In this document: positions 13,874 through 34,024 of the stretch, piece by piece
Layout: each line of letters begins with the position of its first letter
How positions within the stretch are numbered: position 1 is the first letter of the stretch
From: a virus
Strand: one strand, 5' to 3'
Length of the DNA: 64,000 bases
IMG/VR virus record: IMGVR_UViG_3300033388_005265
Location: 55,164 to 119,163 of that record
Notes under the pieces: model-generated
What the model was told of the DNA's origin: nothing
Databases searched by the model: none
What the model saw: only the letters and a program-made list of their open reading frames with translations
Position numbers and translations under genes: made by a program

Positions 13874-13947
13874 TGGGGTGAAGCCGGGAATCGAACCCTG
13901 GTCTCCTGATCCACAGTCAAGCGTTCTACCACTGAACTAGCGACACC
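13874..13947 (-). tRNA. trnH: tRNA-His(GTG), imperfect acceptor stem
   Basis: CT-GTG-GA, G-1/C73 pattern; two acceptor mismatches and one nt short in the T-stem region. Confidence 0.75.
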
Positions 13948-14105
13948 ATATTATATTGTTTGCCAGTGTCCAACAATTATACACGCTAACTGGCTGCCAT
14001 GATTTTTGGAGCACAATAGGCATTAAAATATTACGGACTCTACCTATTGAAAGACAATGCGCATTGTTGACAACTACGTCCAATTACATGTGAGTCCTAA
14101 ATTAT

Positions 14106-14186
14106 TGGTACCAGCGGGGAGACTCGAACTCCCACCCGAAGACTAGATCCTAAGTCTAGCGTGTCTACCAATTCCACCACGCTGGC
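14106..14186 (-). tRNA. trnL: tRNA-Leu(TAG)
   Basis: Cloverleaf with variable arm, CT-TAG-GA, A73, CCA. Confidence 0.93.
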
Positions 14187-14195
14187 ACATATTAT

Positions 14196-14405
14196 TTAAG
14201 CATTTTGCAGCTTACAATGTGCTAAGAAGCCATCATTATATTCTATTGCTTTACTGTCTCTAAAGCATGTTGCACCTGCAAGTATATTAGTCTTATCTTT
14301 AAGACGAAAGAATGGACATTCATTTCCACAATGACCGTCTCTATCTACAATAGACTTTGCTTTCCTATCTGAAATCTTTCCTGAACTTATCACTTGACAC
14401 CTCAT
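14196..14405 (-). CDS. Small Cys-rich hypothetical protein
   Basis: ORF track. Confidence 0.5.
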   Translation of the reverse strand: MRCQVISSGKISDRKAKSIVDRDGHCGNECPFFRLKDKTNILAGATCFRDSKAIEYNDGFLAHCKLQNA

Positions 14406-14836
14406 TTGTAATTTCGTGCTATAGCACTTGCAATTTTGCCGTCATATTTTCCTGGGTATTTAGCAGCCAGATCTTTCATGACTTTACCCATGTCTTTTGG
14501 CATAGTATATTTGTTTTCAGTCACCATAACAGATATTATAGTCTTTAATTCATCTTCTGTCAACTGTTTTGGCAAGTATCTTTCAATAAGTTTTTTTTCT
14601 GCTTGCAAAGGCTCTGTTTGTACTTCCGGAGGACATACTTTTAAAGTCTCATCAATATGCTTTATAAAGCTTTTAGCTATCTTGATTACTTCTTCATCAG
14701 TAGACTCTCTATTGCCTTTGGTTTTACCAACCATGGCAGCTTCACTATATAGGACTGTTAATGTTGCAGCTTTACGCTTATCTCCAGCCTTTCTGCATGC
14801 AACTTGATCATCCTTTATTTCTTGTATTAGACTCAT
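14402..14836 (-). CDS. GatB/YqeY domain protein
   Basis: MSLIQEIKDD...A.K..D......E..LIERYLPKQLTEDE...KDMGKVM..L......DGK. Confidence 0.9.
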   Translation of the reverse strand: MSLIQEIKDDQVACRKAGDKRKAATLTVLYSEAAMVGKTKGNRESTDEEVIKIAKSFIKHIDETLKVCPPEVQTEPLQAEKKLIERYLPKQLTEDELKTIISVMVTENKYTMPKDMGKVMKDLAAKYPGKYDGKIASAIARNYK

Positions 14837-15119
14837 CTTCTTCTCCTGGTTTAACCAGTCTTATTTTTTCTCGTCTTTCTTCTGGTGTCTTTGTTCTAGT
14901 TAAATTTGCAGGATGTTGTTGTCCTTCAAAATCTACATGCATTACATTGCAATCATGTCTTATACACCATACTTGCAATCCATCAGGAGTCCATCCTACT
15001 TCATAACGAGCGTATTCCTTCATAGATGTATTGCCGGGTTTTTCTTTAAAACATCTAGTACAATGTAAATATTGTAAAATCTCGTTATTATGCCCAACCA
15101 TTATTCTTGCTCCGCACAC
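14808..15119 (-). CDS. Conserved hypothetical protein, likely metal-binding
   Basis: HCTRC...EVGWT..GLQVWC.RH..NV.H.DFEG. Confidence 0.7.
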   Translation of the reverse strand: MCGARIMVGHNNEILQYLHCTRCFKEKPGNTSMKEYARYEVGWTPDGLQVWCIRHDCNVMHVDFEGQQHPANLTRTKTPEERREKIRLVKPGEEDESNTRNKG

Positions 15120-15415
15120 TCATAAAGAAATTTTCCCTTAGGTAGAGATTGAATAGTATTATCATTAGTTTCTTGTAATGCATATGGAATCACTTTTGCT
15201 GACTTTAACTTAATCCTATCTCGGACAATATAGTCAGGATTTCTTTCCAGTCTTCTTAATGTAATTCTAGCTTCTCTTTCTTCTATCCCTATTCTGTATG
15301 AAGCCGTTCTTCTTGCCGGACCTATGTTTTGATAGATTTTACCGTCCTTCATATAATAGCTGGTTCCATCTTCAAATGTCAACAGTACTCTGTAAACGTA
15401 TTCTTTCTCTTTCAT
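15101..15415 (-). CDS. Hypothetical protein, paralog of 10971..11279
   Basis: Shared N-terminal pattern. Confidence 0.65.
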   Translation of the reverse strand: MKEKEYVYRVLLTFEDGTSYYMKDGKIYQNIGPARRTASYRIGIEEREARITLRRLERNPDYIVRDRIKLKSAKVIPYALQETNDNTIQSLPKGKFLYECAEQE

Positions 15416-15428
15416 ACAGCCTCTAAAA

Positions 15429-15503
15429 TGGAGCGGGAGAAGGGACTCGAACCCTCAGCAGTCTGCTTGGAAGGCAGAAACTCTACCATTGAGTTACTCC
15501 CGC
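15429..15503 (-). tRNA. trnG: tRNA-Gly(TCC)
   Basis: GCGGGAG acceptor, CT-TCC-AA, U73, CCA. Confidence 0.95.
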
Positions 15504-15982
15504 TCATGTTCTTTAAAATGTAACACAGTATGACATCTAGTACAATATAACGTACATTGTTGTATTTCTTTTAATATCCTTTCCCATGACCATCCTTTCA
15601 TTCTAGCAAAATTTGGATCTTTTGCAGTAGGATCAAGATGGTGAATAGCTAATGCACATTCGTACTCGTCATATCCACATTCTATGCATTTTCCGCCTAA
15701 ATAGGCTATTGCTTTACTTCTGTTTTTTTTAAAGCGTTTTATAGATAGCTGATTATGACAGTTCTTACATGTTGTTTTTCCTTTTCCGTAAAATTTATCT
15801 GGACTAGTTTCTCCACACTTACATCTATATTCATGCTTATCTTTTATGTGTACCTTGCTTGTATTATGCTCACCCCATGGTGAACAAGTTAAACAATACT
15901 TTCTGTTACATAGGTTTTTTGTCTTTCCGTCTATCTTAATTCTATTTGGAAATTTATTATTGCACTTCTTGCATACTGGCAT
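15494..15982 (-). CDS. Putative HNH homing endonuclease, family B
   Basis: CKKC...RKYCLTCSP; LGGKCIECGY....ALAIHHLDP...CTLYCTRCHTVLH; stop at tRNA-Gly nt 8-10. Confidence 0.85.
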   Translation of the reverse strand: MPVCKKCNNKFPNRIKIDGKTKNLCNRKYCLTCSPWGEHNTSKVHIKDKHEYRCKCGETSPDKFYGKGKTTCKNCHNQLSIKRFKKNRSKAIAYLGGKCIECGYDEYECALAIHHLDPTAKDPNFARMKGWSWERILKEIQQCTLYCTRCHTVLHFKEHERE

Positions 15983-16021
15983 CTATGGAATCCTCCTAAG
16001 GGTTTCCATAGTATTAAACAA
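15983..16021 (-). promoter_or_regulatory. SD-enclosing hairpin with overlapping TGTTTAATACTAT motif
   Basis: CTATGGAA-ACCCTTAGGAGGA-TTCCATAG directly before ATG; near-identical element at 18686-18727. Confidence 0.65.
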
Positions 16022-16127
16022 GAGCGCAACTTAAATGCTAATTTATTTTACTTTTCATCTAAGCTACGCTCTTAATCTATAATCCTGTGCTGACTTCTTT
16101 AGCTATTTTAGTCAGCAATTTTGCCAT

Positions 16128-17048
16128 TCAATCGGGCATATCATCGCCACATTCCTCACATATTGCTTTAAATGGAGGAAGAAAAGCCGAAGGATTTCCA
16201 TAATTATAATCCTTTGCTACTTCAGAAAAACTCTTTGCGATATCTACCGCTTGCTCAAGAGTTTTCTTGTAAACAAGCATGTAAGTCATAACTGCTTTTA
16301 CATGGTCTATTGATAGTCCTGCAGTTTGTTCTGCAAGTTCAACCATATCAATCTTTTCCTGAGCTTCTATAGGTAGCTTAGCTTTCAAGATCTGAGCTCT
16401 ATGATCAGCAGACGGAAGTGGAATCTCCTTTACAAAGTTAAACCTTGACGGGCGATTCTTTATTCTATCTGAAACCTTATGCATATAATTGGTTGCAGCA
16501 AGATAAATAACTCCAGGCTCAGACAGATGTCCATCAAGGAAGTTCAAGATATCCATCTCAGCATTACCTCTTGAATGCTTTTCAAACTCATCTGCAACGA
16601 TCATGATCAGTCTATCTGGATCACCATCTCTTATAGTCTCCACAATAGTAGAGTACATATTTGTAGCTGGACCATATATGACTATTGCATCATGCTTAGC
16701 TATAAACCATTCGATCAGCTGATGCATAAACGATGTCTTACCGGTTCCTGGCTTACCATACAACAGTATACCAGTTTTCCATAGTGTGCCTAGTGTCCTG
16801 TGAGCTTCCTTTCCTTCATCTGAAGCAAAGTTATCCACATATGTTCTAAGCTCATCATATATACCACCTTCAAGCTTGATTAGCTCGTCAAAGTTCATTT
16901 CCATCTCTGTGAATAGCGGAGGACTGAACATTGGAATACTAAAATGATATGTTCCAGCTGGTAATCTTTTTGCAACTTTGCCTTCTTTTGGGGTAGGCTG
17001 ATAACTAAACTGCTTTTCTTTGAACTCATTGTTTATTCTATATGACAT
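16128..17048 (-). CDS. AAA+ ATPase
   Basis: Walker A GILLYGKPGTGKT, Walker B IVADEFE, ATN sensor and RPSRF arginine finger. Confidence 0.93.
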   Translation of the reverse strand: MSYRINNEFKEKQFSYQPTPKEGKVAKRLPAGTYHFSIPMFSPPLFTEMEMNFDELIKLEGGIYDELRTYVDNFASDEGKEAHRTLGTLWKTGILLYGKPGTGKTSFMHQLIEWFIAKHDAIVIYGPATNMYSTIVETIRDGDPDRLIMIVADEFEKHSRGNAEMDILNFLDGHLSEPGVIYLAATNYMHKVSDRIKNRPSRFNFVKEIPLPSADHRAQILKAKLPIEAQEKIDMVELAEQTAGLSIDHVKAVMTYMLVYKKTLEQAVDIAKSFSEVAKDYNYGNPSAFLPPFKAICEECGDDMPD

Positions 17049-17085
17049 TTTTTCTCCTATTTTGATTTTTATTAAATTATATTTT

Positions 17086-17176
17086 TGGCGGAGGGAGAGA
17101 GGATCGAACTCTCAAGGCTGTTACACTCGGCGGTTTTCAAGACCGCTGCCGTCGCCAACCGTCGGCTTGCCCCTCC
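17086..17176 (-). tRNA. trnS: tRNA-Ser(TGA)
   Basis: Long variable arm, CT-TGA-AA, G73, CCA. Confidence 0.93.
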
Positions 17177-17329
17177 ATTCTTAAAACTTAAACACAAACA
17201 TGTCTTCACAAGTTGTAGTATAGCTATCAGTTGTATCCATTTTTAACGTGCTCTCTGGATCACATCCATTAAATGAAGCACATCCTGTTGATGTTAACAG
17301 TATAATTAGTAATAATATTTTTTTCATAA

Positions 17330-17749
17330 CTACCAACTGTTCTGCCTATGATTTGTTGCCCACTTTATACGGCCAGTATTATTTATGCCACCAGTATTAT
17401 CAAAAGCAGCTCTTTTTTTGTCAATACTTTTATCTATTGTAGCTTTTTCTTGTTCTGCTAAAGCTATTAATTTAGCTTCTTTAGCTTTTCTTTCTCTTTC
17501 TGCATCTTCTTCTGCTACTACGTTAGCACCAAGTCTTTTTATTCTTAACTTTTTGATCAGTTCTTTCTTAGCACTTATAGTCATACTACATAAAGACTTA
17601 CCTTCATCTGATCTCCACCATTCATTAAAATCAGAAGTGACTTTTTCTGATAGCCTGAGTTCAGAAAACAACGCTTTATTCCAACTCATATCAACAGTAG
17701 CACAACCAAATGACATTAAAATTATAATTAACAATATTACTTTTTTCAT
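17330..17749 (-). CDS. Putative lipoprotein
   Basis: MKK + hydrophobic core + SFGC lipobox-like. Confidence 0.65.
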   Translation of the reverse strand: MKKVILLIIILMSFGCATVDMSWNKALFSELRLSEKVTSDFNEWWRSDEGKSLCSMTISAKKELIKKLRIKRLGANVVAEEDAERERKAKEAKLIALAEQEKATIDKSIDKKRAAFDNTGGINNTGRIKWATNHRQNSW

Positions 17750-17759
17750 TAATTCTCCT

Positions 17760-17837
17760 TGGAGGGCCCTACAGGACTCGAACCTGTGACCTCTTGGTTC
17801 GTAGCCAAGCGCTCTAATCCAACTGAGCTAAGGACCC
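17760..17837 (-). tRNA. trnR: tRNA-Arg(ACG)
   Basis: Cloverleaf, CT-ACG-AA, CCA. Confidence 0.93.
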
Positions 17838-18094
17838 AGATCTTTTTTAACATCAGTAAGAATCTGTTTAAATGTTTTCTTTAAGTCTGGCCAAATACTC
17901 TTCCATTCTTTAATCAATACTTTTATTTCATCTGAATTAAATATCCAGAAGTATGGAATTGATCCTCCAGATACAGCCGGTATAAAGATTTGTGTTATGA
18001 ATAAAAATATTATTAAAAATACAATAAATGCTACAGCTATCATCTTTTCTCCTTTCTTAAATGGTAGACGAAGCAGGGTTCGAACCTGCGACAT
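17828..18094 (-). CDS. Small membrane protein
   Basis: N-terminal TM; likely start MIAVAF; stop at tRNA-Arg nt 8-10. Confidence 0.55.
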   Translation of the reverse strand: MSQVRTLLRLPFKKGEKMIAVAFIVFLIIFLFITQIFIPAVSGGSIPYFWIFNSDEIKVLIKEWKSIWPDLKKTFKQILTDVKKDLGP

Positions 18095-18137
18095 CAGCCT
18101 TGTAAAAGCTGCGCTCTCCCAGCTGAGCTATTCGTCC
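18062..18137 (-). tRNA. trnV: tRNA-Val(TAC)
   Basis: Cloverleaf, TT-TAC-AA, A73, CCA. Confidence 0.93.
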
Positions 18138-18685
18138 ATTTTTAATTTATTACGTGTTCTTCTGCCTTTTCCTTTATTAAGAGCTCCAAATGTTGGTGTT
18201 AACGAATGACAACTAGGGCAAATTAACTCCATATTTTTTGGAATTGTATTTTGAAAGTCTCCATCCTTGTGTTCTGCTTGCACTGGAACTTTACCTGTAG
18301 CCGGATTAACTTCCTTCCAACCACATCTTTCGCATTTATCTCCTCTTGTTTCTCTAAGCCAACGTTTTACATTATTAGAGATCTGATCTTGTGCTTTTCC
18401 TATATTTCCAGTCTCAAGTCCTTTTAACCATCTTTCTATATATAATTTGTATTGAAAATCACTTTTACATGTAGAGCTACAATATTTAGCTTCATATCTT
18501 CCTACTATATTTTCACAGTTAAGACATTTTCCTTTTTTTCTATCTTTTTCATGTATTTGCTTTGTATTGTGTTCACCCCATGGCGAACAATCTAAACAGT
18601 ACTTTCTATTGCCTAAATTTTTCTGTACTCCTTCTATTCTTATTTTAAACGGAAACTTCTCATTACACTTCTTACATATCGGCAT
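18128..18685 (-). CDS. Putative HNH homing endonuclease, family B
   Basis: CERCGW......VQAEHKDGDFQN....NMELICPSCHSLTPTF; N-terminus shared with 15494..15982; stop at tRNA-Val nt 8-10. Confidence 0.88.
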   Translation of the reverse strand: MPICKKCNEKFPFKIRIEGVQKNLGNRKYCLDCSPWGEHNTKQIHEKDRKKGKCLNCENIVGRYEAKYCSSTCKSDFQYKLYIERWLKGLETGNIGKAQDQISNNVKRWLRETRGDKCERCGWKEVNPATGKVPVQAEHKDGDFQNTIPKNMELICPSCHSLTPTFGALNKGKGRRTRNKLKMDE

Positions 18686-18727
18686 CCTATGGATCCTCCT
18701 TTAAAGGGTTTCCATAGTATTAAACCA
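18686..18727 (-). promoter_or_regulatory. SD-enclosing hairpin with overlapping GGTTTAATACTAT motif
   Basis: CTATGGA-AACCCTTTAAAGGAGGA-TCCATAG before ATG. Confidence 0.65.
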
Positions 18728-18782
18728 AAGCGTAACTTAAATGACTAGTTTATTTATTTTTATTGCAAGATTGCAGACTAAG

Positions 18783-19019
18783 TTACTCGTCCACATCTTT
18801 TTTAGTATTCCTAAATTTCATTGAACTTGCACTATAAGCAGCTTGGTAGAAATCAACCATCTTCTCTGCTATCTCATCAGCCATCTTTTTTAATTCAGGC
18901 TGTTCATCAAGCATTTCATGTTGAGATATATTAGTATCCCAAGAATCCTGCAAGACACTTGCTCTATCCATTACTTCATGATATCCAAACTCATCATTCG
19001 CAGGCATTATCTTTTTCAT
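18783..19019 (-). CDS. Hypothetical protein
   Basis: ORF track; DEFGYHEVMDR pattern. Confidence 0.6.
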   Translation of the reverse strand: MKKIMPANDEFGYHEVMDRASVLQDSWDTNISQHEMLDEQPELKKMADEIAEKMVDFYQAAYSASSMKFRNTKKDVDE

Positions 19020-19176
19020 CCTTGATTATCTTATCGCTTTCCCTTCTTCTTGCTTTGTTTATCATTTTTTTGAAATATTTAGTAATACCATTTTTACTTG
19101 CATTTTTAGACCAATCGTATCTAAACATTTTAAAGTGAGCTTCACTCTTAGTCCCCGGTTTCATCTTTTCCTTATT

Positions 19177-19251
19177 TGGAGGGCAAAGAGGGAATCGAAC
19201 CCCCGTAAACTGGGTTGCAATCAGTCACCTAAGCCACTCGGACACTTGCCC
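19177..19251 (-). tRNA. trnC: tRNA-Cys(GCA)
   Basis: TT-GCA-AC, U73, CCA; one anticodon-stem mismatch. Confidence 0.88.
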
Positions 19252-19255
19252 TTAT

Positions 19256-19333
19256 TGGTGGAGAGAGGAGGAGTCGAACCTCAGGCCTCCTGTGCTTCAA
19301 ACAGGCGCTCTACCACAGCTGAGCTACCTCTCC
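19256..19333 (-). tRNA. trnF: tRNA-Phe(GAA)
   Basis: Cloverleaf, TT-GAA-GC, CCA. Confidence 0.9.
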
Positions 19334-19347
19334 ATATTTTAAATAAT

Positions 19348-19422
19348 GTAGGCGGGCAAGATTTGAACTTGCGTCCTCCAGCTAAACCGCTGGCGCTCTA
19401 CCGGACTGAGCTACCAACCTAC
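19348..19422 (-). pseudogene. Degenerate tRNA-like gene, 6-nt anticodon loop
   Basis: Intact D-arm (GCTC/GAGC) and T-arm (GCAAG-TTCAAAT-CTTGC); CCAGC-GGTTTA-GCTGG; bulged acceptor; no CCA. Confidence 0.7.
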
Positions 19423-19434
19423 CTTCACATAAAT

Positions 19435-19511
19435 AGAGTAAATACGCAAGAGTCGAACTTGCCATCTCCCGGCTTGTGCCAGGTGCCCTGCCCGCTTAGG
19501 CCACTATCTAC
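19435..19511 (-). pseudogene. Degenerate tRNA-like gene, 6-nt anticodon loop
   Basis: D-stem GCCT/GGGC, CCTGG-CACAAG-CCGGG, T-arm GCAAG-TTCGACT-CTTGC; no CCA. Confidence 0.65.
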
Positions 19512-20004
19512 ATCTATGTAAATTCTGTTTTTTCTTCTTTATGTTTCTGCCTGTGAATGTGTCCAATTGACTATCACAATGCGGACATACCATTCTTAGA
19601 TTCTCTATCCTATTGTCATTATTTGTGCCATTAATATGATCTAATCTTAGTACTAATGGTTTTCCTTGCCACTCTGGTCTTATGCCACATATTTGGCATT
19701 TATTTTTTAACAATCCTTTTTCAAATAGTCTTTTTTTTAAATTAGTATTATTGTTATATGTACTATTTTCGACTAATATCTTTTCTAATGGAATTTTTTT
19801 AGCCCAATCGTGTTTTCTATCTTTTAAATAGCCTTGTCCTGTGAAATGAGATACATCTAAATTAAGTCTTTTAATAGCGTTGTTTAAAGTATTATAATTT
19901 CCTCCAGCTGGAATTAATCCTAATTTCTTTATTGCTGCCGCCTTTGAAAAACATGCCTTAACTGCTTTTGATACATCGTCATCTGTATATGATTTTTCTC
20001 TCAT
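19504..20004 (-). CDS. Putative HNH homing endonuclease
   Basis: KCQICG....WQGKPLVLRLDHINGTNNDNRIENLRMVCPHCDSQ. Confidence 0.92.
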   Translation of the reverse strand: MREKSYTDDDVSKAVKACFSKAAAIKKLGLIPAGGNYNTLNNAIKRLNLDVSHFTGQGYLKDRKHDWAKKIPLEKILVENSTYNNNTNLKKRLFEKGLLKNKCQICGIRPEWQGKPLVLRLDHINGTNNDNRIENLRMVCPHCDSQLDTFTGRNIKKKKQNLHRCR

Positions 20005-20027
20005 CTTATTGACCTCATTATATTATT

Positions 20028-20104
20028 TGGTAGGAGTGATGGGATTCCAACCCACACTTAATAGGGCTTAAACCTATTGCCTCTGGCAATTGGGCTACAC
20101 TCCT
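20028..20104 (-). tRNA. trnL: tRNA-Leu(TAA), short variable loop, C19/G56
   Basis: AGGAGTG/CACTCCT, TT-TAA-GC, A73, CCA; D-loop GC instead of GG, T-loop TTGGAAT. Confidence 0.82.
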
Positions 20105-20282
20105 ATACTCTAATATAAACAAAATCAACTAAATGGAAGACTTATTTTTTTATTATTCTCTTACGTCTACCTGTTCCTTTTATCCGAATATCAAAAATAA
20201 TACTATGGAAGCTACTAATATTGCACCTGCCACCTTTGTTAGTATCATTGTAGTCCTACATGTATCTGTTTTACATTCCATC

Positions 20283-20819
20283 TTACCATCCATCACTATT
20301 CCTATTTGACCAATTAGTTCTTTTTCCGTCATCCTTTATCGCATTCTTTATCGGACTTGACATCCCTGATACTTTTAACTTTTCTTCTGGAGGTTGAAAA
20401 CTTGGTTCTACTCCATTACTCCAAGGAGACTCTGTCCAAACGTATCCTTCTGGTGTTGCCTTTATTCTTATTTTTCCTTCAATGGCATCTCTCTGTCCTT
20501 CGAAATATGCCTCTTCCATTGCTTTTCCAATGGGAGTATCTGATAATCTAGCTTTTTTTACAGCCTTGCCACTTTCAACTCTATCTTTAATATCCCTGTA
20601 CTCTTTTAAAGAGTTTGTTCCACGAGTCTTTAAAGAAGCTAACCATGCTTTCTTTGTTAATGTAGTAACATTATTTTCAACAGCATAATTATAATATGCT
20701 CTTTCTCTATAACTAGCAAACTGTGGAATAGCTATAGCTGCAAGCATACCTACAATAACCACAACAATTAACAATTCTATAAGGGTAAAGCCACATGGAT
20801 CTTCTTTACTATACATCAT
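20283..20819 (-). CDS. Type IV prepilin-like protein (N-methylation domain) with unrelated C-terminus
   Basis: G|FTLIELLIVVVIVGMLAAIAIPQFASYRERAY class III signal peptide with Glu5; RBS AAGGAG. Confidence 0.88.
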   Translation of the reverse strand: MMYSKEDPCGFTLIELLIVVVIVGMLAAIAIPQFASYRERAYYNYAVENNVTTLTKKAWLASLKTRGTNSLKEYRDIKDRVESGKAVKKARLSDTPIGKAMEEAYFEGQRDAIEGKIRIKATPEGYVWTESPWSNGVEPSFQPPEEKLKVSGMSSPIKNAIKDDGKRTNWSNRNSDGW

Positions 20820-20834
20820 AACTACTCCTTAAAT

Positions 20835-20909
20835 TGGTAGGACTACCTGGGTTCGAACCAGGGACCTTCTGCTTATCAGGCAGATGCTCTACCGCTGAGC
20901 TATAGTCCT
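20835..20909 (-). tRNA. trnI: tRNA-Ile(GAT)
   Basis: Cloverleaf, CT-GAT-AA, CCA. Confidence 0.95.
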
Positions 20910-20915
20910 AAATTA

Positions 20916-21170
20916 TTAACGATATTCTACTATTCCGCCTTCACTATTAGCGACATACATCTTATCTCCTACAGTAATAAAATATATGGCAATCCAAGGA
21001 TCACTAATGGCTCTTTTCATAGTGAATTTAATTGGCTGCTCTTTCTTAGTCGCCTCATGACATCCGTTGCATCCATAATCCCAGTCACCTGCGTGAGCAT
21101 AAGAAAATATACCAAGTACTGCTAACATTACTATAGACATTATCAGTGTGTTCTTAAGCATTCTAATCAT
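20916..21170 (-). CDS. Small secreted protein with a CxxCH (heme c-binding-like) motif; start corrected from 21221
   Basis: AAGGAG RBS before ATG 21170; signal peptide ending AHA; mature GDWDYGCNGCH. Confidence 0.65.
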   Translation of the reverse strand: MIRMLKNTLIMSIVMLAVLGIFSYAHAGDWDYGCNGCHEATKKEQPIKFTMKRAISDPWIAIYFITVGDKMYVANSEGGIVEYR

Positions 21171-21192
21171 TTCTAACTCCTTTGTTAAGGTC

Positions 21193-21225
21193 AAAAAAAA
21201 TCCCACGCTCTTATGAGACATGGGA
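21193..21225 (-). terminator. Rho-independent terminator downstream of tRNA-Thr
   Basis: TCCCA...TGGGA hairpin followed by T8. Confidence 0.75.
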
Positions 21226-21231
21226 TGGTAG

Positions 21232-21307
21232 TGGAGCCGAAGGAGGGATTCAAACCCCCGACAAGCTGATTACAAATCAGCTGCTCTATCAGCTGAGCTA
21301 CATCGGC
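21232..21307 (-). tRNA. trnT: tRNA-Thr(TGT)
   Basis: Cloverleaf, TT-TGT-AA, CCA; A19/U56. Confidence 0.9.
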
Positions 21308-21568
21308 CTAATCTACCATCTTCTTTAGTTGCCATGAAGGTAATGTTTTTACACCACCCATAATTTTTTCATCACCGGTAATCGGCAATATCTTTCCATA
21401 ACTATCATGGTCATATCTATTATCGCCATGGCACATCGAGCCAAAAGCGTATAATCCAGGTTTATCTGCATTAATATCTGTTGTGTCTATATCTTCTTGA
21501 GTTATATCTAATACAACCCAAAATCTATCGTGTCCTTCTTTTTTTACTAAAGCTCCAGAGTATAACAT
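21308..21568 (-). CDS. Hypothetical protein
   Basis: ORF track; stop abuts tRNA-Thr +1. Confidence 0.6.
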   Translation of the reverse strand: MLYSGALVKKEGHDRFWVVLDITQEDIDTTDINADKPGLYAFGSMCHGDNRYDHDSYGKILPITGDEKIMGGVKTLPSWQLKKMVD

Positions 21569-21608
21569 GTTCTTCCTTCTGTGTCAATTTATTATTGAAA
21601 AAAAATAA

Positions 21609-21686
21609 GTGTAGGCATGGTAGGATTCGAACCTACGGCCCTTGGGTTTATGAGCCCAAGTTCTACCTCTGATATACACTGCCTAC
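21609..21686 (-). pseudogene. Degenerate fMet-like tRNA (CAT), 8-nt anticodon loop
   Basis: TTGGG-CTCATAAA-CCCAA with three G-C pairs, intact T-arm, weak D-stem, bulged acceptor, no CCA. Confidence 0.65.
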
Positions 21687-21853
21687 AACTGGAATTTTGC
21701 AAGTCAAACCCTGTTATTAGGCAATTAATACTACACGATGACTTTATAACAGATAAATACTGCTCACCAGCAAGTTCTTGGATAACCAAGAACGACCCCA
21801 TAAATTACTTAATAATAAGACATATTTATTGTTATTTTGTTTTATATTATAGT

Positions 21854-22471
21854 ATGGGAGCTACAATATCATTAAAATGTCCAACATGCCTTTGTATTTT
21901 TGACAAACAAATGACAGCATATAGGCGAAGCAATAAACGTGGCTATAATCACTTTTGTTCCAGAGAATGTGGCTTTAAAAATCACACTTCTGAAGGAACA
22001 TCAAAAGTAATTTGTCGCAATTGTGATAATGTTTTCACTAAACATAACAGTGAAATTCTAAAAAGTACTAATAATTTTTGTTCTAAATCATGTGCTGCTA
22101 CATATAACAATAAGAACAAGTCTTATGGAATTCGTCGCAGTAAACTTGAAATTCATATTGAAAATAAAATTAAATCTGAATTCCCACACATATCATTCGT
22201 ATCAAACTGTAAAAAAATCATAGGATCAGAACTTGATCTATATTTTCCAAGTTTAAATCTAGCTATTGAAATCAATGGACCACTTCATTATGAGCCTATA
22301 TACGGTGAAGAAAAACTTCTTCAAATTCAAGCCAACGACAAACTTAAAATAAATGCATGTAGTGATGCTAACATTAAATTAGTTACCGTAGATAATTTAC
22401 AAACCTTTTCAAAAACGTATTCTAATAAATGTTGGAAAACAATAAAACCATATTTAATTGGTGACCTATAA
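21854..22471 (+). CDS. Putative DUF559/Vsr-like homing endonuclease, paralog of 11754..12371; start corrected from 21617
   Basis: Same 205-aa length and motifs (LKCPTC, FCS..C, ELDLYFP.L.LAIEINGPLHY). Confidence 0.8.
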   Translation: MGATISLKCPTCLCIFDKQMTAYRRSNKRGYNHFCSRECGFKNHTSEGTSKVICRNCDNVFTKHNSEILKSTNNFCSKSCAATYNNKNKSYGIRRSKLEIHIENKIKSEFPHISFVSNCKKIIGSELDLYFPSLNLAIEINGPLHYEPIYGEEKLLQIQANDKLKINACSDANIKLVTVDNLQTFSKTYSNKCWKTIKPYLIGDL

Positions 22472-22533
22472 GGGGATCGAACCCTTGCTGCCTGATAGAA
22501 AGTCAGGTGTCCTAGCCACTAGACGAATAGGTC
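22459..22533 (-). tRNA. trnE: tRNA-Glu(TTC)
   Basis: Cloverleaf, CT-TTC-TA, CCA. Confidence 0.9.
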
Positions 22534-22541
22534 ATTAAATT

Positions 22542-22619
22542 TGGTCTGGATGGCAAGATTTGAACTTGCGACATCTCGCGTCCAAGGCGAGAACTCTGAC
22601 CAAACTGAGCTACATCCCG
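22542..22619 (-). tRNA. trnP: tRNA-Pro(TGG)
   Basis: C1:G72, CT-TGG-AC, A73, CCA; one acceptor mismatch. Confidence 0.9.
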
Positions 22620-23568: not shown

Positions 23569-24512
23569 AATTCAAAGTTAGGCTCTTCTGAAAAGCCACT
23601 ATTTTCTGATAGCACTTCTATTTGATCCATTTTCTCTTCTATTAGCGGCGCCACTTCAGTCGTATAGTCTAGTTCACCTAGTTTTACTTGTCTTAAAAAG
23701 TCTGCCGATTTTAATGGAAACACTATGGTTCCAGTAGTAAATAGCTCTTCAAGCTGAAATGCAGCTCTTAATGCATGACTTAAGGCTTTCCAGTCTATAT
23801 TCTCGTTGTTCTTAGCTGCCATAGCTCTAGCGCCATATTTTTCATACACTAATTGAAGTGCATCTCTAGTGTATTTTACCTTAGCTGTTTCCTGGAACTT
23901 CCTATTACAGACCTCATACATTCTGTATCTATCTGGCTTAACACTATCATCTGTAGCTGGATGCTGAGCTATATGCTCTCCTAAAGGAAGGCAATCCCAT
24001 ATATCAGCAAGCTTTTCATCATCAGGACGAGTGTTCAAATATTCAATTGCCCTAGTTACTGCATCCAGTCTGGAACCTTTTATTCCATATTTAGCAGCCT
24101 GCTTTCTTGCATAGTCAACGAATGCACTTAGATTCTTATGATAAAATTGTTCTTTGTTTATAGTAATATAGGACCAATGTAAGCTAGACTCTATTATCAT
24201 TTCACAAGGAGCATGTATCATATCTATTTGTGCTGTTTGTCCTTCACATGCAAGCTTTATAAACTGATGTAAAGAGAACAATTCAACATCTATGTCATCC
24301 TTAGTATTTTTCCCTTTTTCATCACCGCTACTATGATTTATAGTTGGCTGTGCTTTTTGCAATATTAAGTCTTCTTTAGATGGAAGAAATACTCCTTTAT
24401 AATCTACGTCACTATGCTCAGTATCAGTACCATATAAATGGCTACCAAATTTCATAAGAACTACTAGTTCTCGTCCATCAAGCAATTCACGTACAACTTC
24501 CATGTCAGTCAT
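23535..24512 (-). CDS. DNA polymerase beta-superfamily nucleotidyltransferase
   Basis: FGSHLYGT....SDVDYKGVF (GS + DxD); C-terminal WKALSHALR. Confidence 0.88.
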   Translation of the reverse strand: MTDMEVVRELLDGRELVVLMKFGSHLYGTDTEHSDVDYKGVFLPSKEDLILQKAQPTINHSSGDEKGKNTKDDIDVELFSLHQFIKLACEGQTAQIDMIHAPCEMIIESSLHWSYITINKEQFYHKNLSAFVDYARKQAAKYGIKGSRLDAVTRAIEYLNTRPDDEKLADIWDCLPLGEHIAQHPATDDSVKPDRYRMYEVCNRKFQETAKVKYTRDALQLVYEKYGARAMAAKNNENIDWKALSHALRAAFQLEELFTTGTIVFPLKSADFLRQVKLGELDYTTEVAPLIEEKMDQIEVLSENSGFSEEPNFEFWKEFIMGTYK

Positions 24513-24760
24513 CTTTTAATTCCTTTCAGCATTGAACTGTTAAAGATCCCGGCGGGCTTCTTTTCCTCTATGACTTCTTCTTCTACTATTACTTCCTCTA
24601 TCTTCTTATTAAGAAATCTTTCTGGAGGATTGCTAAGCTTTATCTTAGTCTTACTATTAACAATTGCAAAAGAGTTTATTTCCAATATATGTCTAAATGC
24701 TGCCTCTGCTCTTTCAGCATCAGCTGCGGTATCATATTCAATTGAATAAGACGGACTCAC
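24509..24760 (-). CDS. Hypothetical protein
   Basis: ORF track. Confidence 0.55.
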   Translation of the reverse strand: MSPSYSIEYDTAADAERAEAAFRHILEINSFAIVNSKTKIKLSNPPERFLNKKIEEVIVEEEVIEEKKPAGIFNSSMLKGIKR

Positions 24761-24771
24761 CTTATCTATAT

Positions 24772-25107
24772 CTAGTAATGATCTATATCTAGTAATGTCG
24801 TCAATATTATAGATGTTTTAGAAGGAGCATTATCTATATTGTTATAGAGGGTATTTCCTCTTCCATAATAATATGTAGATGGAGAGCCATAATTACTACC
24901 TCTTTTAGATAGAACTTCAATCGTATACTGAACATCTCCTATTGTTCCAGCAGCATAAGGAGTATGATGATCATAAAATCTATCCTTAAGATCTTCAGCT
25001 AATATCTTGGTTGCTACTTTTAACTTTTTACCACTAACTGTAAGCTTTACAGCTCCAAAATACTCTTCTTTTGTGAAATATAAAGTGTTAGTATCTTTAT
25101 CTAGCAT
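24772..25107 (-). CDS. Hypothetical protein
   Basis: ORF track. Confidence 0.6.
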   Translation of the reverse strand: MLDKDTNTLYFTKEEYFGAVKLTVSGKKLKVATKILAEDLKDRFYDHHTPYAAGTIGDVQYTIEVLSKRGSNYGSPSTYYYGRGNTLYNNIDNAPSKTSIILTTLLDIDHY

Positions 25108-25108
25108 T

Positions 25109-25699
25109 CTATCCCTCCTCTATTATGGTGCCAGCACCTATAACATGAGATATATTTCCTACGCTAGACTCTGACTCTTCTTGTTCAGTGTTATCGACAA
25201 GCGAAGCTAAAGACTTTTTATTAAATATCTTTAGTTTCTTTGGCTTTTTAATTCTTCGCCTCATTCTTGTCATTTTAAGTTTTTCTTCTTTATCTGGATC
25301 AGTGGTAAGTCTTTCTCCTTTGCCTAGGACTTGACCTCCAAGCTCCTCTATCATCATTTTAAACTTTTCATATGACTTTAAAGCAGCATTTCCTCCACCA
25401 TATACCATGCATCTGCTAGACTTGCCAACTCTATCGTCCATATTAGGAAATGTCAAGCAATTACTTCCAATACTAGGTCCCCAATTACTGGTCTTTATCA
25501 TAAATACTTCATTATGTCTTGGAGGTATTCTACAGGTTATGAGAAAACCTTTTCCCATTAATCTTTTCGGTATTTTAGTGGCTGTTAAGCATAATGATCT
25601 TCTTCCGTAAGCTCCAGTCATATCACTAACATACATTCGCACTACTAAATCTTTTCCTTCATCCATAACCCATTTGGTTACGGTTTTTCTCTTAGCCAT
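25109..25699 (-). CDS. Hypothetical protein
   Basis: 196-aa ORF; RBS GAGGAG. Confidence 0.65.
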   Translation of the reverse strand: MAKRKTVTKWVMDEGKDLVVRMYVSDMTGAYGRRSLCLTATKIPKRLMGKGFLITCRIPPRHNEVFMIKTSNWGPSIGSNCLTFPNMDDRVGKSSRCMVYGGGNAALKSYEKFKMMIEELGGQVLGKGERLTTDPDKEEKLKMTRMRRRIKKPKKLKIFNKKSLASLVDNTEQEESESSVGNISHVIGAGTIIEEG

Positions 25700-25729
25700 T
25701 CTCTCATTTCTCCTCTCGTCTTACTACAT

Positions 25730-26726
25730 CATCCTCTCAAAGATGTGCCCAAGTCAGGCGTTCTTGGGCTCCTATAGAATTACCACGGCTAGACCGTCAT
25801 ACAACGGGTTTTCGCTTCGTACCTACATGGATGCTGGTTCTTTATTTATTATAAATTCTTTTATGGTATTATTACTGTATCAGCTATATGTTAAGGGACA
25901 GACAAATGGACTAGACATCTCTTGCTGCTTCGACCCAATCCCACTAGAGCTCTGACTGTTTAGGTCTTTCCCTAATGTTTTGGTCCACAGCAATTAACTG
26001 AGAAGCTCCAACATCTCAGGTTGCCTCTAATCGTTAATACTCTAAGCATAAGCTATTATGGAGCCGATATAATGGAAACGTACACCGTCATTAAGGCTTT
26101 CACCGTTGAAGGTTCGTCCATCCGTCCCGAAACATTTTTCTTTCCAAGTGTGAGTTATACCATTTCACCGCTTTAATCAACTCTGATTAAATCGGGATTT
26201 TCAAAGAAAATCACAAGGTGAAACTCCGGTAATAACTAACAGTTCTAAGTCTACCCGAATATTTATCTCTCTTTGACACTTCTAATAGTACACTTTAGTG
26301 CCAATAAAGATTCTTAAAAAGTAATTTATCAAAGATATTACTAAAAGAACATATGTCAAGATAAGATAAACCGGGGGTCTGACTTTTCTTACAATGCCGA
26401 TACAGCATTGATTGCCCATAGGCCGCAGTTCTTACCGAGGCCTATAGGACTTCTATTAAGTTAATCAATTATTATACTTCTACTGTCTTAGTTTGCCTAC
26501 CGTGTCTTGCCGCCGGCGTTCACAAAACCTTATAGGACTTTGTATGTGTTGCTCTGATCATCATAGTATGAGGCATGTTTCAGCCTAGACTTTACCTACT
26601 CCTACGCTACCTCGCAGGGAGTATTATTTTTTTATAAGTAGGCACTAGGTCTAAATCTACATCGGAACCTCCATTTAGGCATAATTAAGATAATTTAGGT
26701 ACTTTAATATTAATTTTTGTTACTTT
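25730..26726 (-). ncRNA. Candidate large structured ncRNA (~1 kb)
   Basis: No minus-strand ORF; more than 10 helices, some nested; upstream sigma70-like promoter. Confidence 0.55.
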
Positions 26727-26732
26727 TACTTA

Positions 26733-26761
26733 ATAATAACATAACTGCTTTTAATAATCAA
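26733..26761 (-). promoter_or_regulatory. Sigma70-like promoter
   Basis: TTGATT-17 bp-TATTAT with TGn extension. Confidence 0.55.
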
Positions 26762-26836
26762 TACTTACATTACATAACACCTTATGGCATTCTAATGATT
26801 TAGGCGTCTTTTATTATGGAGATTTTGCCTGTATCA

Positions 26837-27319
26837 CTATGGAGATTTTATATTCTTTATGACTGTTCTTCCAAAGAGCTTTCTTTTCTTTGGCGCGACA
26901 TCTTTATTAAACATGGTAGTCTTAGCCCCTGGCTTAGGATATGTCATTACTGCTGCAACATTTGATCTGTCTATGAATACATATGACCCATCAGCCATGT
27001 TTATAATAAATCCATCTGAAGACTCAGTTACACTATACTCATTATATTCGTGTTCTTCTCCTAATGATAATGAACAGTGTTGTAACATTTTAATACTACT
27101 ATCACTAGGCATATCTTCTAGTGCAATTAAGCATTGAGACCATGATCCTTGATATAAGGCATCATATGTTACTGAGATACCTGCATCCATACATATTTCA
27201 TTACTGCAGTCTTGATTACACAGGTCCTTAATGGTTATCTGAACTGAATTTCCTCTTTTAATCTCTGCATTAATAAGATCTCTATTAGTCATCTTAGCTA
27301 TGTAATCCACTAAGTTCAC
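26837..27319 (-). CDS. Hypothetical protein
   Basis: ORF track. Confidence 0.6.
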   Translation of the reverse strand: MNLVDYIAKMTNRDLINAEIKRGNSVQITIKDLCNQDCSNEICMDAGISVTYDALYQGSWSQCLIALEDMPSDSSIKMLQHCSLSLGEEHEYNEYSVTESSDGFIINMADGSYVFIDRSNVAAVMTYPKPGAKTTMFNKDVAPKKRKLFGRTVIKNIKSP

Positions 27320-27614
27320 TAAGGAATTCCTTTTTCTTCATTCTTTTTGTCACAGGCTCAACAGCTGCTACTTTTTCTATCTTTCTTATAGCGCAGATCT
27401 TACTATTTATATTGGCGCCTACTTCACTAAGAGCATTTGTAACACGCCCATCTTCAACATGCTTAAAGACACCATCATATGTCATAAGCATATCGCCTTC
27501 ATGAACTAAACCGTCACCTTCTTCTGCGAAAACAATTCTCCAATCATCATGAATAATAGTTACTTTCCCTGAATAGTCAACTGATCTACCGTCATGTGTC
27601 GCATACTTTGACAT
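27294..27614 (-). CDS. Hypothetical protein
   Basis: ORF track. Confidence 0.6.
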   Translation of the reverse strand: MSKYATHDGRSVDYSGKVTIIHDDWRIVFAEEGDGLVHEGDMLMTYDGVFKHVEDGRVTNALSEVGANINSKICAIRKIEKVAAVEPVTKRMKKKEFLSELSGLHS

Positions 27615-28065
27615 CTTTCTTTGCTCTCCTCATTTTATTAATCATATCAGTGGAACCTGTACTCATATCAACTCTGAATACAACAGCTGCATCTGAATAG
27701 TCACGCATATCTCCGTTCCTATCAATACCTGCTTTGGCATTATACTTCTTGCCATACTTGTTAGTCTTTATAATTGCACCTGGAGCATCTAAGTTATCCC
27801 AGTCTGCTGCAAATCTTTTCCAGCTATAACCTTTTTCTAAAGCATATCTGTGCCCCATGTCATCAGCACCACGAGCCTTACCATCAACGATCTGTATATC
27901 GTCTTTGATATCCTTTAAAAACTTGTCCAATTCTGCCGATAAAAGTTTGTAATTCCTGAACCCTCTGCTCCCCGCCACTATTACTTTGTACATGATCTTC
28001 TCCCTCTTTAATAGTTTTGCAATTAGAGAAAGAATATTTAGTTTTAAGGGATTGCACGAACTCAT
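27592..28065 (-). CDS. SLOG-superfamily (YspA/DUF2493-like) protein
   Basis: KVIVAGSRGF...IVDGKARGAD..G..YA...AG..RN..M; likely start MYKVIV. Confidence 0.85.
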   Translation of the reverse strand: MSSCNPLKLNILSLIAKLLKREKIMYKVIVAGSRGFRNYKLLSAELDKFLKDIKDDIQIVDGKARGADDMGHRYALEKGYSWKRFAADWDNLDAPGAIIKTNKYGKKYNAKAGIDRNGDMRDYSDAAVVFRVDMSTGSTDMINKMRRAKKDVKVCDT

Positions 28066-28183
28066 CTACATAGCCATCTATTACACTGATTACTACGTAT
28101 CTCTTTATTTTAGAAGACCCTTTAAGTTTCTGATTTAAAAAAGCTTTTAGCTCTTCTTTTATTTTATTTTCATCTATATACAT
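27884..28183 (-). CDS. Hypothetical protein
   Basis: ORF track; 3' end overlaps the next gene. Confidence 0.45.
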   Translation of the reverse strand: MYIDENKIKEELKAFLNQKLKGSSKIKRYVVISVIDGYVDEFVQSLKTKYSFSNCKTIKEGEDHVQSNSGGEQRVQELQTFIGRIGQVFKGYQRRYTDR

Positions 28184-28210
28184 GGTTATCTCCTTTATAG
28201 TGGAGAAAGA

Positions 28211-28408
28211 TTAAGATTCTCTTGTTTCATCACATATATATTTAGGACATTCAGTAATGATTTTTGTAAGAACTGGAGAGTCCTCTGGTTTTGGACCAAA
28301 GAATTCCATGTTCTTTAACAGAGAATACCTGGAGGCTTCATCTGTATCTGGTGGTACAGGACACTTATCTGCAAAATTGCAGCTGTAACACAGGTCTTTA
28401 TATCTCAT
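28211..28408 (-). CDS. Small Cys-rich protein
   Basis: CYSC...CP...CP. Confidence 0.55.
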   Translation of the reverse strand: MRYKDLCYSCNFADKCPVPPDTDEASRYSLLKNMEFFGPKPEDSPVLTKIITECPKYICDETRES

Positions 28409-29094
28409 GCTTGATTCCTCACAGCCTTAACTAATCTGCTTCTTATTTTACTTACTTCTCCATCTTCTTCGAAGCATGCAAGTTTACGTTTTAACTCAGC
28501 ATTTTCTATTTGTAGTCTTGCTGTTTCATTTTTATACAGACCATTACTTTTACTAAGCTTATTTTTTTCTGCTCTTTCTTTTCTTATTGTTCCATCTCGT
28601 GTCTTTATTCCAGTATCAAGCACTGTTACTTCTCTTAATGCCTGCTTAACAAAGGTGACATGATCTCCTACTTCTCTTCTAAATTTACTATATATAGTAT
28701 TAGCCTTTTTTCTATTCGGCTTCTCTCTATCTAATTGATTTTTTAGCTGATTTAACAGCTCATACAGATAGTCAGGATCAATCTTGTCATTATCTCTATT
28801 AGTCCTGGCTTGAAGACCCATTAACTTAAGAGTCTTGGCAGCTTCAGCACCCATCATTGATTTGCCGCCAGCACCAATCGTGACACCAGCACCAATCATA
28901 GAACCAACATGCATATCACTTATTAGTATTGGAGTACAGTTATAATCAGCTACGATATAGCCTTCGTTATCGTCTACAGCTTCACTTCTAAGCTGAATCA
29001 TTTGCTCAGACATTGTCATGTCTTCAAACTTCTTTTTAGGAGTATAATATTCTCTATACTTCTGTCCTTTAGGCCAACATCCTTCCATTGTCAT
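28405..29094 (-). CDS. Hypothetical coiled-coil protein
   Basis: ORF track; C-terminal heptads then RSRLVK. Confidence 0.65.
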   Translation of the reverse strand: MTMEGCWPKGQKYREYYTPKKKFEDMTMSEQMIQLRSEAVDDNEGYIVADYNCTPILISDMHVGSMIGAGVTIGAGGKSMMGAEAAKTLKLMGLQARTNRDNDKIDPDYLYELLNQLKNQLDREKPNRKKANTIYSKFRREVGDHVTFVKQALREVTVLDTGIKTRDGTIRKERAEKNKLSKSNGLYKNETARLQIENAELKRKLACFEEDGEVSKIRSRLVKAVRNQA

Positions 29095-33499: not shown

Positions 33500-33662
33500 C
33501 TATTTCTTTGTTCAATTGTTTAAGTCTTTCTGTAACCTTGGCTAACTCTTCAGTAGCCTCTGCTTTAGCAGCCTTTACGTCAAACCGGTGCTTTACAAGC
33601 ACACGTATAGTTCTCCATGAAGCCCATAGGTTATCGTATATCTTCTCAAGTTTCTTTTTCAT
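33480..33662 (-). CDS. Hypothetical protein
   Basis: ORF track. Confidence 0.5.
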   Translation of the reverse strand: MKKKLEKIYDNLWASWRTIRVLVKHRFDVKAAKAEATEELAKVTERLKQLNKEIDEKTRA

Positions 33663-33849
33663 CTCTTTCTCCGTTCCACTCCCAGTGCTTACATGCAGGC
33701 ATATACATTCCTAGACCACATACATCAGTGTCCTTCTCATAGAATCTGCAGTTATTACATGTCTTTGCCGGCAAGTTTTTATTACAGTAGTAATATATGG
33801 TTAAAAATATAACAAGTATAACTATTCCTGTTACTATGTATCCAATCAT
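33646..33849 (-). CDS. Small membrane-anchored Cys-rich protein
   Basis: N-terminal TM; CNNC...C...C..W. Confidence 0.6.
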   Translation of the reverse strand: MIGYIVTGIVILVIFLTIYYYCNKNLPAKTCNNCRFYEKDTDVCGLGMYMPACKHWEWNGERDEKET

Positions 33850-34024
33850 TATGCTTCTCCTTTAATACGTTGTGGAGCTACTCCATCCTTTAGGATTACC
33901 CAAACGGTAACACAAGGAATTAAGTTAATACAGAACCTCTTAGTATTATCTGAATAATGAACACCTATCCAGAAGCTTCTAAGTCGGAATAATATTCCTA
34001 TTGATTTTAGTCTAAACATTGTAT

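Follow-up and report, generated by a model that had tools for sequence, protein, structure and literature searches.

GOLLD and ROOL are large structured RNAs of phages that frequently lie near transfer RNA (tRNA) islands and have no known function (PMC12286853). GOLLD carries symmetric kissing loops whose palindromes covary (PMC12286853), and ROOL, which has no known protein partner, also assembles through kissing loops (PMC12286853; PMC5737381). OLE is a large, ornate RNA that dimerizes through a palindromic kissing loop, switching palindromes in the course of evolution (PMC12286853), and it belongs to the cells of anaerobic, extremophilic bacteria (PMC3413148). Large structured RNAs that neither encode protein nor serve the ribosome are rare, and each new class has opened new structural biology; the GOLLD and ROOL cages and the OLE dimers were solved only in 2025, and their functions are still unknown. 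Here we describe a locus in a 119-kb IMG/VR virus record (IMGVR_UViG_3300033388_005265), from which we analyzed a stretch of 64,000 nucleotides (nt) spanning positions 55,164 to 119,163 (the window). The minus strand of the window from 26726 to 25747 is very probably the gene for a ~980-nt, multidomain, structured noncoding RNA (ncRNA). Its family is not in Rfam and belongs to a small clade of tRNA-rich phages from sediments and cold seeps. The RNA resembles the GOLLD and ROOL families without being a member of either.

An initial annotation, made from the window sequence alone, had interpreted the largest gap in a block of minus-strand genes as a new, large ncRNA transcribed from that strand under its own promoter. 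This reading is supported by conservation of the gap in eight phage contigs, strand-specific covarying helices that include G·U pairs, the lack of a coding signature, and the lack of an Rfam match; the existence of a structured gap is confirmed. When open reading frames (ORFs) of at least 70 amino acids (aa) are counted on both strands, 25956-26836 is indeed the largest ORF-free interval in the window, and it widens to 25700-26836 once a spurious plus-strand ORF (25674-25955) is discounted. The gap is bordered by genes for a 160-aa protein (26837-27319) and a 196-aa protein (25109-25699), both on the minus strand and neither belonging to a Pfam family. At a GC content of 0.40-0.42, the interval is slightly richer than its surroundings (~0.35).

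We searched for relatives of the locus at the nucleotide and protein levels. A blastn search of a phage collection gave no match, and protein-based searches of IMG/VR for related loci with both flanking proteins found nothing. Relatives were reached through synteny. Six metagenomic contigs carry homologs of these flanking proteins, with 59-85% identity for the 196-aa protein. The same gap adjoins these homologs in five of them (L003, L004, L005, L006, and L007), and the sixth (L011) stops 29 nt beyond the 160-aa gene; L010 was added through a further homolog of the 160-aa protein. L003 and L004 are collinear with the window for >4 kb, at nucleotide identities of 79% and 77%, respectively. When 1.84 billion representatives were searched with a profile built from the 196-aa family, a single further true relative emerged, which is distant (E = 9e-12). 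A divergent version of the RNA is present on the contig encoding this relative (L013; nhmmer E = 1e-20) and on a sister contig (L015; E = 3e-23). In L015, it occupies an ORF-free gap of ~830 nt; L013 starts within the RNA. The family has eight members in two lineages; the gap keeps its position in L003, L004, L005, L006, L007, and L010 and in the distant lineage (L013 and L015).

Several candidates were set aside. A search of IMG/VR with the RlaP protein encoded downstream returned one 42%-identical locus (L002) that has neither the gap nor a homolog. Exact-pattern scans of IMG/VR, JGI metagenomes, and GTDB genomes returned L008, L009, L012, and L014, which are chance matches in coding regions or, in the case of L012, similar only in the pattern itself. 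Contigs from four runs compared with 24000-28500 were merely fragments of relatives, from marine-sediment and cold-seep metagenomes. Runs sharing a small fraction of the sampled words of the stretch, including three DNA runs that we compared, are labeled marine sediment, cold seep, or seawater. The family is rare, and it is found in a small clade of tRNA-rich phages of marine sediments and cold seeps.

The locus is noncoding and under blockwise purifying selection. The window copy contains 26-34 stops in each sense frame, and the longest open stretches differ from one relative to another. In a comparison of the window, L003, and L004, variable columns across the gap are spread over the three phases without periodicity (123/102/114; P = 0.37), whereas three flanking genes show a third-position excess (P = 3e-4 to 2e-15; phases 65/46/148 for the RlaP gene). 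Reading TGA as tryptophan or TAG as glutamine yields no sense-strand ORF above 72 aa. A decayed or unrecognized coding sequence, be it a pseudogene, a set of small ORFs, or a gene in another genetic code, would be in keeping with the short ORFs of 37-45 aa on the minus strand and with the frameshift that splits another gene of the window (24509-25107). However, these ORFs fall in the least conserved parts of the gap, and a start-stop element near the 5′ end of the RNA, described below, is too short to count. We regard a coding origin as the least credible of the explanations considered here. Three-way identity along the gap is a mosaic in which blocks at 0.82-0.92 (26740-26561 and 26140-26021) are interspersed with blocks at 0.38-0.52. 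Identity in the neighboring genes is 0.39-0.62 at third codon positions and 0.56-0.86 at first and second positions. Therefore, the conserved blocks of the gap are constrained as strongly as the first and second positions of protein-coding sequence.

To assess the structure, we placed helices by hand on an alignment of the family (A4), since insertions and deletions in loops shift helices in MAFFT alignments. RNAalifold folds of the full or re-justified alignment were discarded, as they gave inconsistent global folds with helices shifted in the same way. Across 116 pairs in 18 helices, 97.7% of 621 cells are standard pairs, compared with 34-42% when partners are slid. Both sides have changed in 18 of the 116 pairs, a number reached in none of 500 shuffles (8.9 ± 2.0) and far from the 2-4 seen with slid partners. 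Fifty-nine cells are G·U, and pairing is 97.7% when the helices are read as minus-sense RNA versus 88.7% on the plus strand. Because these G·U cells fit the minus sense better, we assign the structure to a minus-strand RNA. A second strand test, which compared cognate with hybrid pairings and allowed ±2 sliding, separated the two poorly (0.94 versus 0.85), as the sliding was too permissive. On the minus-sense strand, at least ~20 helices persist through substitutions that are compensatory or pass via G·U pairs. A central part of the RNA, from the 5′ leader to the core, is common to two diverged phage lineages, and one long arm and the 3′ domain are lineage-specific.

The initial annotation had named a replication origin as the alternative. 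As a DNA-level element, either an origin or a packaging site, the locus would owe its hairpins to DNA cruciforms or protein-binding palindromes; an AT-rich stretch inside the interval (26200-26350; GC, 0.32-0.35), an 8-bp palindrome that stays palindromic among relatives, and two direct repeats upstream would suit such an element. The GC-skew analysis that had been suggested as a check speaks against it, with a monotonic cumulative skew and no inflection across the gap, and the interval holds no iterons or repeated boxes and no internal repeat family beyond chance pairs. In addition to the poorer plus-strand fit of the helices, compensatory changes connect strands 250 nt apart, as expected of RNA folding and not of protein-bound DNA. 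A function at the DNA level is thus very improbable.

The folding energy of the RNA fits a structure but is not decisive, and it is the comparative evidence that carries the proof. The whole RNA gave a z-score of −3.8 (20 shuffles) or −5.3 (14 shuffles), and six coding controls ranged from −0.1 to −3.8. Local 200-nt folds were unremarkable (−0.3 to −2.7). By itself, folding energy would not have established the structure.

To compare the locus with known RNA families, we searched Rfam 15. At the gathering score, only tRNAs were found in the window. Searching 25500-27000 with permissive filters at E ≤ 10 gave three chance-level matches (E = 2-9), none of them to a large RNA, an intron, or ribonuclease P (RNase P), and no match to these classes was found in L003, L004, and L013 at E ≤ 1. 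The GOLLD, ROOL, and OLE models likewise gave no match in any of these searches. These three models should be in the searched library because Kretsch et al. drew their GOLLD, ROOL, and OLE profiles from Rfam (PMC12286853). Full-text searches of the literature found no description of this RNA.

These searches also bear on two other identities for the locus, namely a group I or group II self-splicing intron or other mobile ribozyme, and a divergent form of a housekeeping RNA, for example RNase P RNA. Some words in the sequence are reminiscent of such RNAs, namely AAAGUCC, which is like CR-I of RNase P, and UAGUCC and AAUUGC/GCAGC, which are like the S, P, and Q elements of group I introns. However, no ribozyme, intron, or RNase P model matched, and each AAAGUCC word is the 5′ flank of a local arm. 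By our own reading, the P-, Q-, and S-like words and an R-like GGAC strand do not follow one another as group I topology would require. The RNA has no flanking exons: its start lies at a promoter, and in every relative the ORFs on either side are intact genes of their own. Unlike a mobile intron, it also occupies the same site throughout the relatives. There is little to recommend an intron or an RNase P RNA as the identity of this locus.

The structure can be followed from the 5′ end, with all features on the minus strand. Close to the 5′ end (26657-26672), the sequence reads GGAGG-5 nt-AUG-UAG, a Shine-Dalgarno (SD)-like motif with a start-stop mini-ORF. The mini-ORF is AUG-UGA in L003 and L004, and L015 has GGAGG-8 nt-AUG followed by two codons and UAG (L015:239-263). 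The presence of this element in both lineages invites the speculation that it contacts ribosomes. It precedes a 5′ domain, P1 (26586-26653; helices 1-3), in which UAGAC/GUCUA and CCUACU/AGUAGG are nested around the hairpin CCUGCG/CGUAGG. This inner hairpin has two compensatory pairs in L010, and the outer position in L015 is UAGGCC/GGCCUA. Of the hairpin originally drawn at 26583-26650, the inner CCUGCG/CGUAGG part is upheld, and the outer TACTCC/GGAGTA part is broken in L010.

Two similar arms follow. The D2 arm (26496-26536; helix 4) has ~15 bp, is preceded by AAAGUCC, and contains three pairs changed on both sides; its register in L006 was checked by hand. The H3 arm (26415-26448; helix 5) consists of CCUAUAGGCC/GGCCUAUGGG, is preceded by AAGUCC, and contains three covarying pairs, which agrees with the CCTATAGGCC/GGCCTATGGG helix proposed at this position. 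A repeat search likewise recovered the reported double occurrence of AAGTCCTATA. D2 and H3 share the 5′ start AAGUCCUAUA, and H3 appears to be a duplicate of the D2 module because the distant lineage has a single such arm.

The H4 hairpin (26392-26410), CAAUGC/GCAUUG, was also correctly anticipated. Its stem varies at three positions and covaries (CAACGC/GCGUUG in L005 and CUCUGC/GCAGAG in L015), and its loop, UGUAUCG (26398-26404), is invariant wherever it is covered in both lineages. This loop is complementary to UGAUACA (25876-25882; helix 7), which lies ~520 nt downstream and is invariant in the near lineage; in L015, only AUACA is recognizable. Since all seven pairs are invariant, covariation neither supports nor refutes them, and UGUAUCG/UGAUACA is a candidate for a long-range pseudoknot or an intermolecular contact.

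D4 (26247-26385) is a long, AU-rich, irregular arm with a hypervariable tip, identified from folds of the individual sequences and closed by UUGACAU/GUGUCAA with two compensatory pairs. L015 has a different, GC-richer arm of 120 nt in its place. A near-consensus promoter-like site, TTGACA-16-TATCTT (26332-26359), also lies within D4. Because its TTGACA doubles as the 5′ strand of the covarying closing helix and is deleted in L004, this site is probably coincidental and not the start of a second RNA.

The three-way junction (26163-26223) has UUUCACC/GGUGAAA as its outer helix, which encloses the hairpins GAUUUUC/GAAAAUC and UUUAAUCA/UGAUUAAA. When this region was realigned alone, with L015 included, 99.2% of cells in its 22 pairs were paired, and 12 pairs covaried, compared with 5.4 ± 1.5 in shuffles (0 of 500 reached 12). 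All seven outer pairs covary, and L013 forms the same junction although all three helices differ in sequence. These results bear out the junction exactly where it had been predicted.

The core domain (25888-26135), with three-way identity of 0.82-0.83, comprises ~250 nt closed by three stacked long-range helices, AUGUU/AACAU, GGGACGGAU/GUCUGUCCC, and GGAC/GUCC, whose outer part covaries within the near lineage. The closing helices are fully replaced in L013 and yet complementary (UUUUUAA/UUAAAAG, CAACAGA/UCUGUUG, and UGGAC/GUCCA). Inside the core are a GAAA-loop hairpin, CGGUGUA/UAUAUCG, GCUCC/GGAGC, UCUC/GAGA, UUGCUGU/GCAGCAA, and two variable inserts; hairpins of variable length occur at the fixed sites 26045-26054 and 25933-25982. 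UCUC/GAGA becomes UCCU/AGGA in three genomes and UUCU/GGGA in L013. The CTGAGA/TCTCAG helix that had been proposed is not conserved, being broken in L003, L004, and L005; its UCUC instead covaries with the GAGA ~80 nt downstream. TTAGG-GAAAGA-CCTAA, also proposed as a helix, sits within a hypervariable insert. We rejected the helix GAUUGGGUCGA/UCUAGUCCAUU, which fails in L005. A candidate pairing of GGAC (25982-25985) with GUCC has one double change in L005 but conflicts with the better supported core-closing helix.

The 3′ domain (25747-25831; helices 17 and 18) contains a UCC-UGUAGG/UCUAUA-GGA helix, a variable CCGU/ACGG hairpin, and the terminal hairpin GCCCAAG/CUUGGGC. The terminal hairpin is kept, with A-U to G·U changes, as the initial annotation would have it. 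ACGG/CCGT, which had been listed twice, fared less well: one of these hairpins is a variable element, replaced in relatives by hairpins of different sequence. The 3′ domain is absent from the distant lineage, where its position is taken by an ORF of 138-145 aa (L013:423-839 and L015:994-1431). This ORF could be either a real gene or a miscall over diverged RNA.

A consensus scan placed a sigma70-like promoter, TTGATT-17-TATTAT with a TG before the −10 element, at 26733-26761 on the minus strand, with a predicted start near 26726. This promoter, which had also been recognized in the initial annotation, is identical in L003 and L004 although the flanking spacer diverges. In L010, where the comparison covered the −10 element, that element is identical to the one in the window. 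Immediately upstream, a repeat search identified two 23-nt direct repeats, 23 nt apart, with the core AAAATCTCCATA (26804-26849). They overlap the stop codon of the 160-aa gene, are kept in L003 and L004, and constitute a possible binding site for a regulator.

At the other end of the RNA, the terminal hairpin has no U-tract, and a scan of 24500-28000 found no terminator-like site. Nothing resembling a terminator separates the last hairpin, which ends at 25747, from the ribosome-binding site and start codon (ATG at 25699) of the 196-aa gene. This arrangement, together with the promoter directly upstream and the RNA-then-gene order in all relatives, would be expected of a giant structured 5′ leader. 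Such a cis-regulatory untranslated region would control the translation, stability, or processing of a downstream operon that includes the 196-aa gene, the RlaP gene, and possibly the tRNA array. Long 5′ leaders and riboswitch-type regulators are similarly promoter-proximal with no terminator before the next gene. Known bacterial cis-regulatory leaders are several-fold smaller than ~980 nt, however, and the size, ~20 conserved helices, and three-way junction of this RNA far exceed those of known bacterial and phage leaders. The part adjacent to the gene is also the least conserved, in particular the 20-45 nt that separate the ribosome-binding site from the last hairpin, and conservation is also lacking in the 3′ domain beside that site. 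An ORF separates the RNA core from the 196-aa homolog in the distant lineage, and we saw no conserved anti-SD pairing. A leader is therefore an improbable explanation, if clearly a better one than a DNA element, a coding sequence, or an intron. It is also compatible with a structured ncRNA gene, as the RNA could be excised from the same transcript. A run labeled metatranscriptomic, for which the recorded library strategy is ChIP-Seq, spans the gap and the flanking genes alike and, because both are covered, gives no verdict on expression.

The apical loop of D2 contains an 8-nt palindrome (26511-26518) that is a candidate symmetric kissing loop. It reads CGCCGGCG in the window as well as in L003 and L004, UGCCGGCA in L010, and CGUCGACG in L006. 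Self-complementarity is kept at four of four positions in all five sequences through two independent double changes, which include an inner pair unable to form inside one loop; 29 of 500 shuffles match this. In the distant L015, the loop of the single AAAGUCC-preceded arm holds CGCGC. Kretsch et al. treated covarying palindromes as evidence of symmetric kissing loops, as in L9.3 of OLE and L21a of GOLLD (PMC12286853). By analogy, the D2 palindrome might allow the RNA to self-associate into a dimer or a larger RNA-only assembly as in OLE, GOLLD, and ROOL, a reading that we advance tentatively. The palindrome is a lead and not a result because, with five sequences, so many shuffles equal it.

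A number of observations weigh against the interpretation of the locus as a free-standing, self-associating structured RNA. The comparison draws on eight contigs only, six of them at 73-85% identity, so its statistical power is limited, and the sequences that test the structure also served in part to derive it. Covariation is silent on the H4-loop pseudoknot, GGAC/GUCC, and GCUCC/GGAGC, which are invariant. The distant lineage has no 3′ domain and a single AAGUCC arm in place of two. The global fold is only partly worked out, and alternative registers compete within the 5′ 200 nt and around GGAGC. The folding z-score barely beats some of the coding controls, two of which reached −3.7 and −3.8. 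Covariation in the palindrome amounts to two substitution events, and a DNA palindrome bound by a dimeric protein would leave the same pattern. Finally, the 3′ hairpin is not followed by an intrinsic terminator, which weakens the case for a free-standing RNA; no sequencing run recorded as RNA contains the stretch, and contigs cannot reveal RNA ends.

The genomic context of the RNA is that of a tRNA-rich phage. The record encodes a large terminase and a DNA ligase, and cmscan with Rfam identified 20 tRNAs at 10907-22619 of the window, on the same minus strand as the predicted RNA. In the near lineage, the gene order is a set of small genes including one for a YAcAr/SLOG-domain protein, the RNA, a 196-aa basic protein, a ~190-aa protein, an RlaP nucleotidyltransferase (PF10127), and the tRNA array. 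The tRNA arrays of the window, L003, L004, and L013 start ~3 kb downstream of the RNA on the same strand. The location in a phage near a tRNA array is a context shared with GOLLD-type RNAs and is no evidence of homology. The order of the RNA and the 196-aa gene (25109-25699) is constant across relatives; the gene follows directly in the near lineage and after an additional ORF in the distant one. The encoded protein is rich in lysine and arginine. It had no match in Pfam, PHROG, PDB, or ESM Atlas searches, and its AlphaFold2 model (mean predicted local distance difference test score of 46) was too poor for a fold search.

We noted three further features of these genomes. A single 191-aa ORF of L003 (L003:6590-7165) corresponds in the window to ORFs of 111 and 83 aa in different frames (24509-25107, minus strand); the break near 24765 is a frameshift, which marks either a pseudogene or a fault of assembly. 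Outside the tRNA region, the ORF-free intervals that come next in size (33500-34024, 45515-46000, and 48607-49087), each of 480-525 nt, may contain further noncoding elements. Within the tRNA array of L003, positions 11070-11140 gave a sub-threshold match to the Y RNA-like YrlA (25.9 bits; E = 0.14) that overlaps a tRNA-like sequence and is probably a tRNA.

We propose the following model. The conserved sigma70-like promoter at 26761-26733 would drive transcription of the RNA. In the absence of a terminator behind it, the RNA would then either be released by processing or stay as the 5′ part of a transcript that reads on into the 196-aa and RlaP genes and the tRNA array. The D2 palindrome would join RNA copies into a dimer or a larger RNA-only assembly. 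During infection, the RNA may act as a scaffold, container, or decoy tied to the phage module for tRNA, RNA repair, or translation takeover, with the SD-AUG-stop element as a possible ribosome contact; we consider this role a rather unlikely conjecture. Taken as a whole, it is possible, though we would not call it probable, that sediment phages encode here a new ~1-kb class of RNA, exceeding GOLLD in size, whose copies self-assemble into RNA-only dimers or cages. Assembly would proceed through the palindromic kissing loop and perhaps UGUAUCG/UGAUACA, and the RNA would work with the tRNA and RNA-repair module, possibly touching ribosomes through the SD-AUG-stop element.

The RNA is an independent and larger example, from another habitat, of the same genomic habit, that is, a phage genome with a tRNA array nearby. 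This adds weight to the view that giant RNAs have arisen repeatedly in tRNA-rich phages to serve a single task, as yet unknown. It merits further study for its size, for covariation of such quality from few genomes, and for the candidate kissing loop, and it offers several experimental handles: a defined transcript of ~980 nt, a well-supported junction and core, a candidate dimerization loop open to mutation and rescue, and a constant basic neighbor protein. It should be well suited to cryo-electron microscopy and biochemistry, and the alignment could seed an Rfam-type family and reveal more members.

Among known systems, OLE is a cellular and not a phage RNA. It has a dedicated neighboring protein partner, OapA; here, a constant basic protein of 196 aa, without detectable similarity to any family, is encoded next to the RNA. 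ROOL (rumen-originating, ornate, large) RNAs are ~580 nt; on that figure, the RNA described here is ~1.7 times longer, and it differs from ROOL in habitat and has an unrelated secondary structure. ROOL is likewise a large RNA of phages or prophages near tRNA islands, and it has multiple pseudoknots and a disordered variable linker. In GOLLD, the conserved part is 3′, whereas here it is central and 5′. The tRNA array here is ~3 kb away, neither adjacent nor embedded, the family comprises eight contigs, and oligomerization is inferred only. Like GOLLD, which often exceeds 800 nt, the RNA is very large, has many helices and putative pseudoknots, and is encoded by phages or prophages, often near tRNA islands. 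Both combine a universally conserved part with a variable part and a poorly conserved linker, and both were first found in environmental metagenomes, including marine ones.

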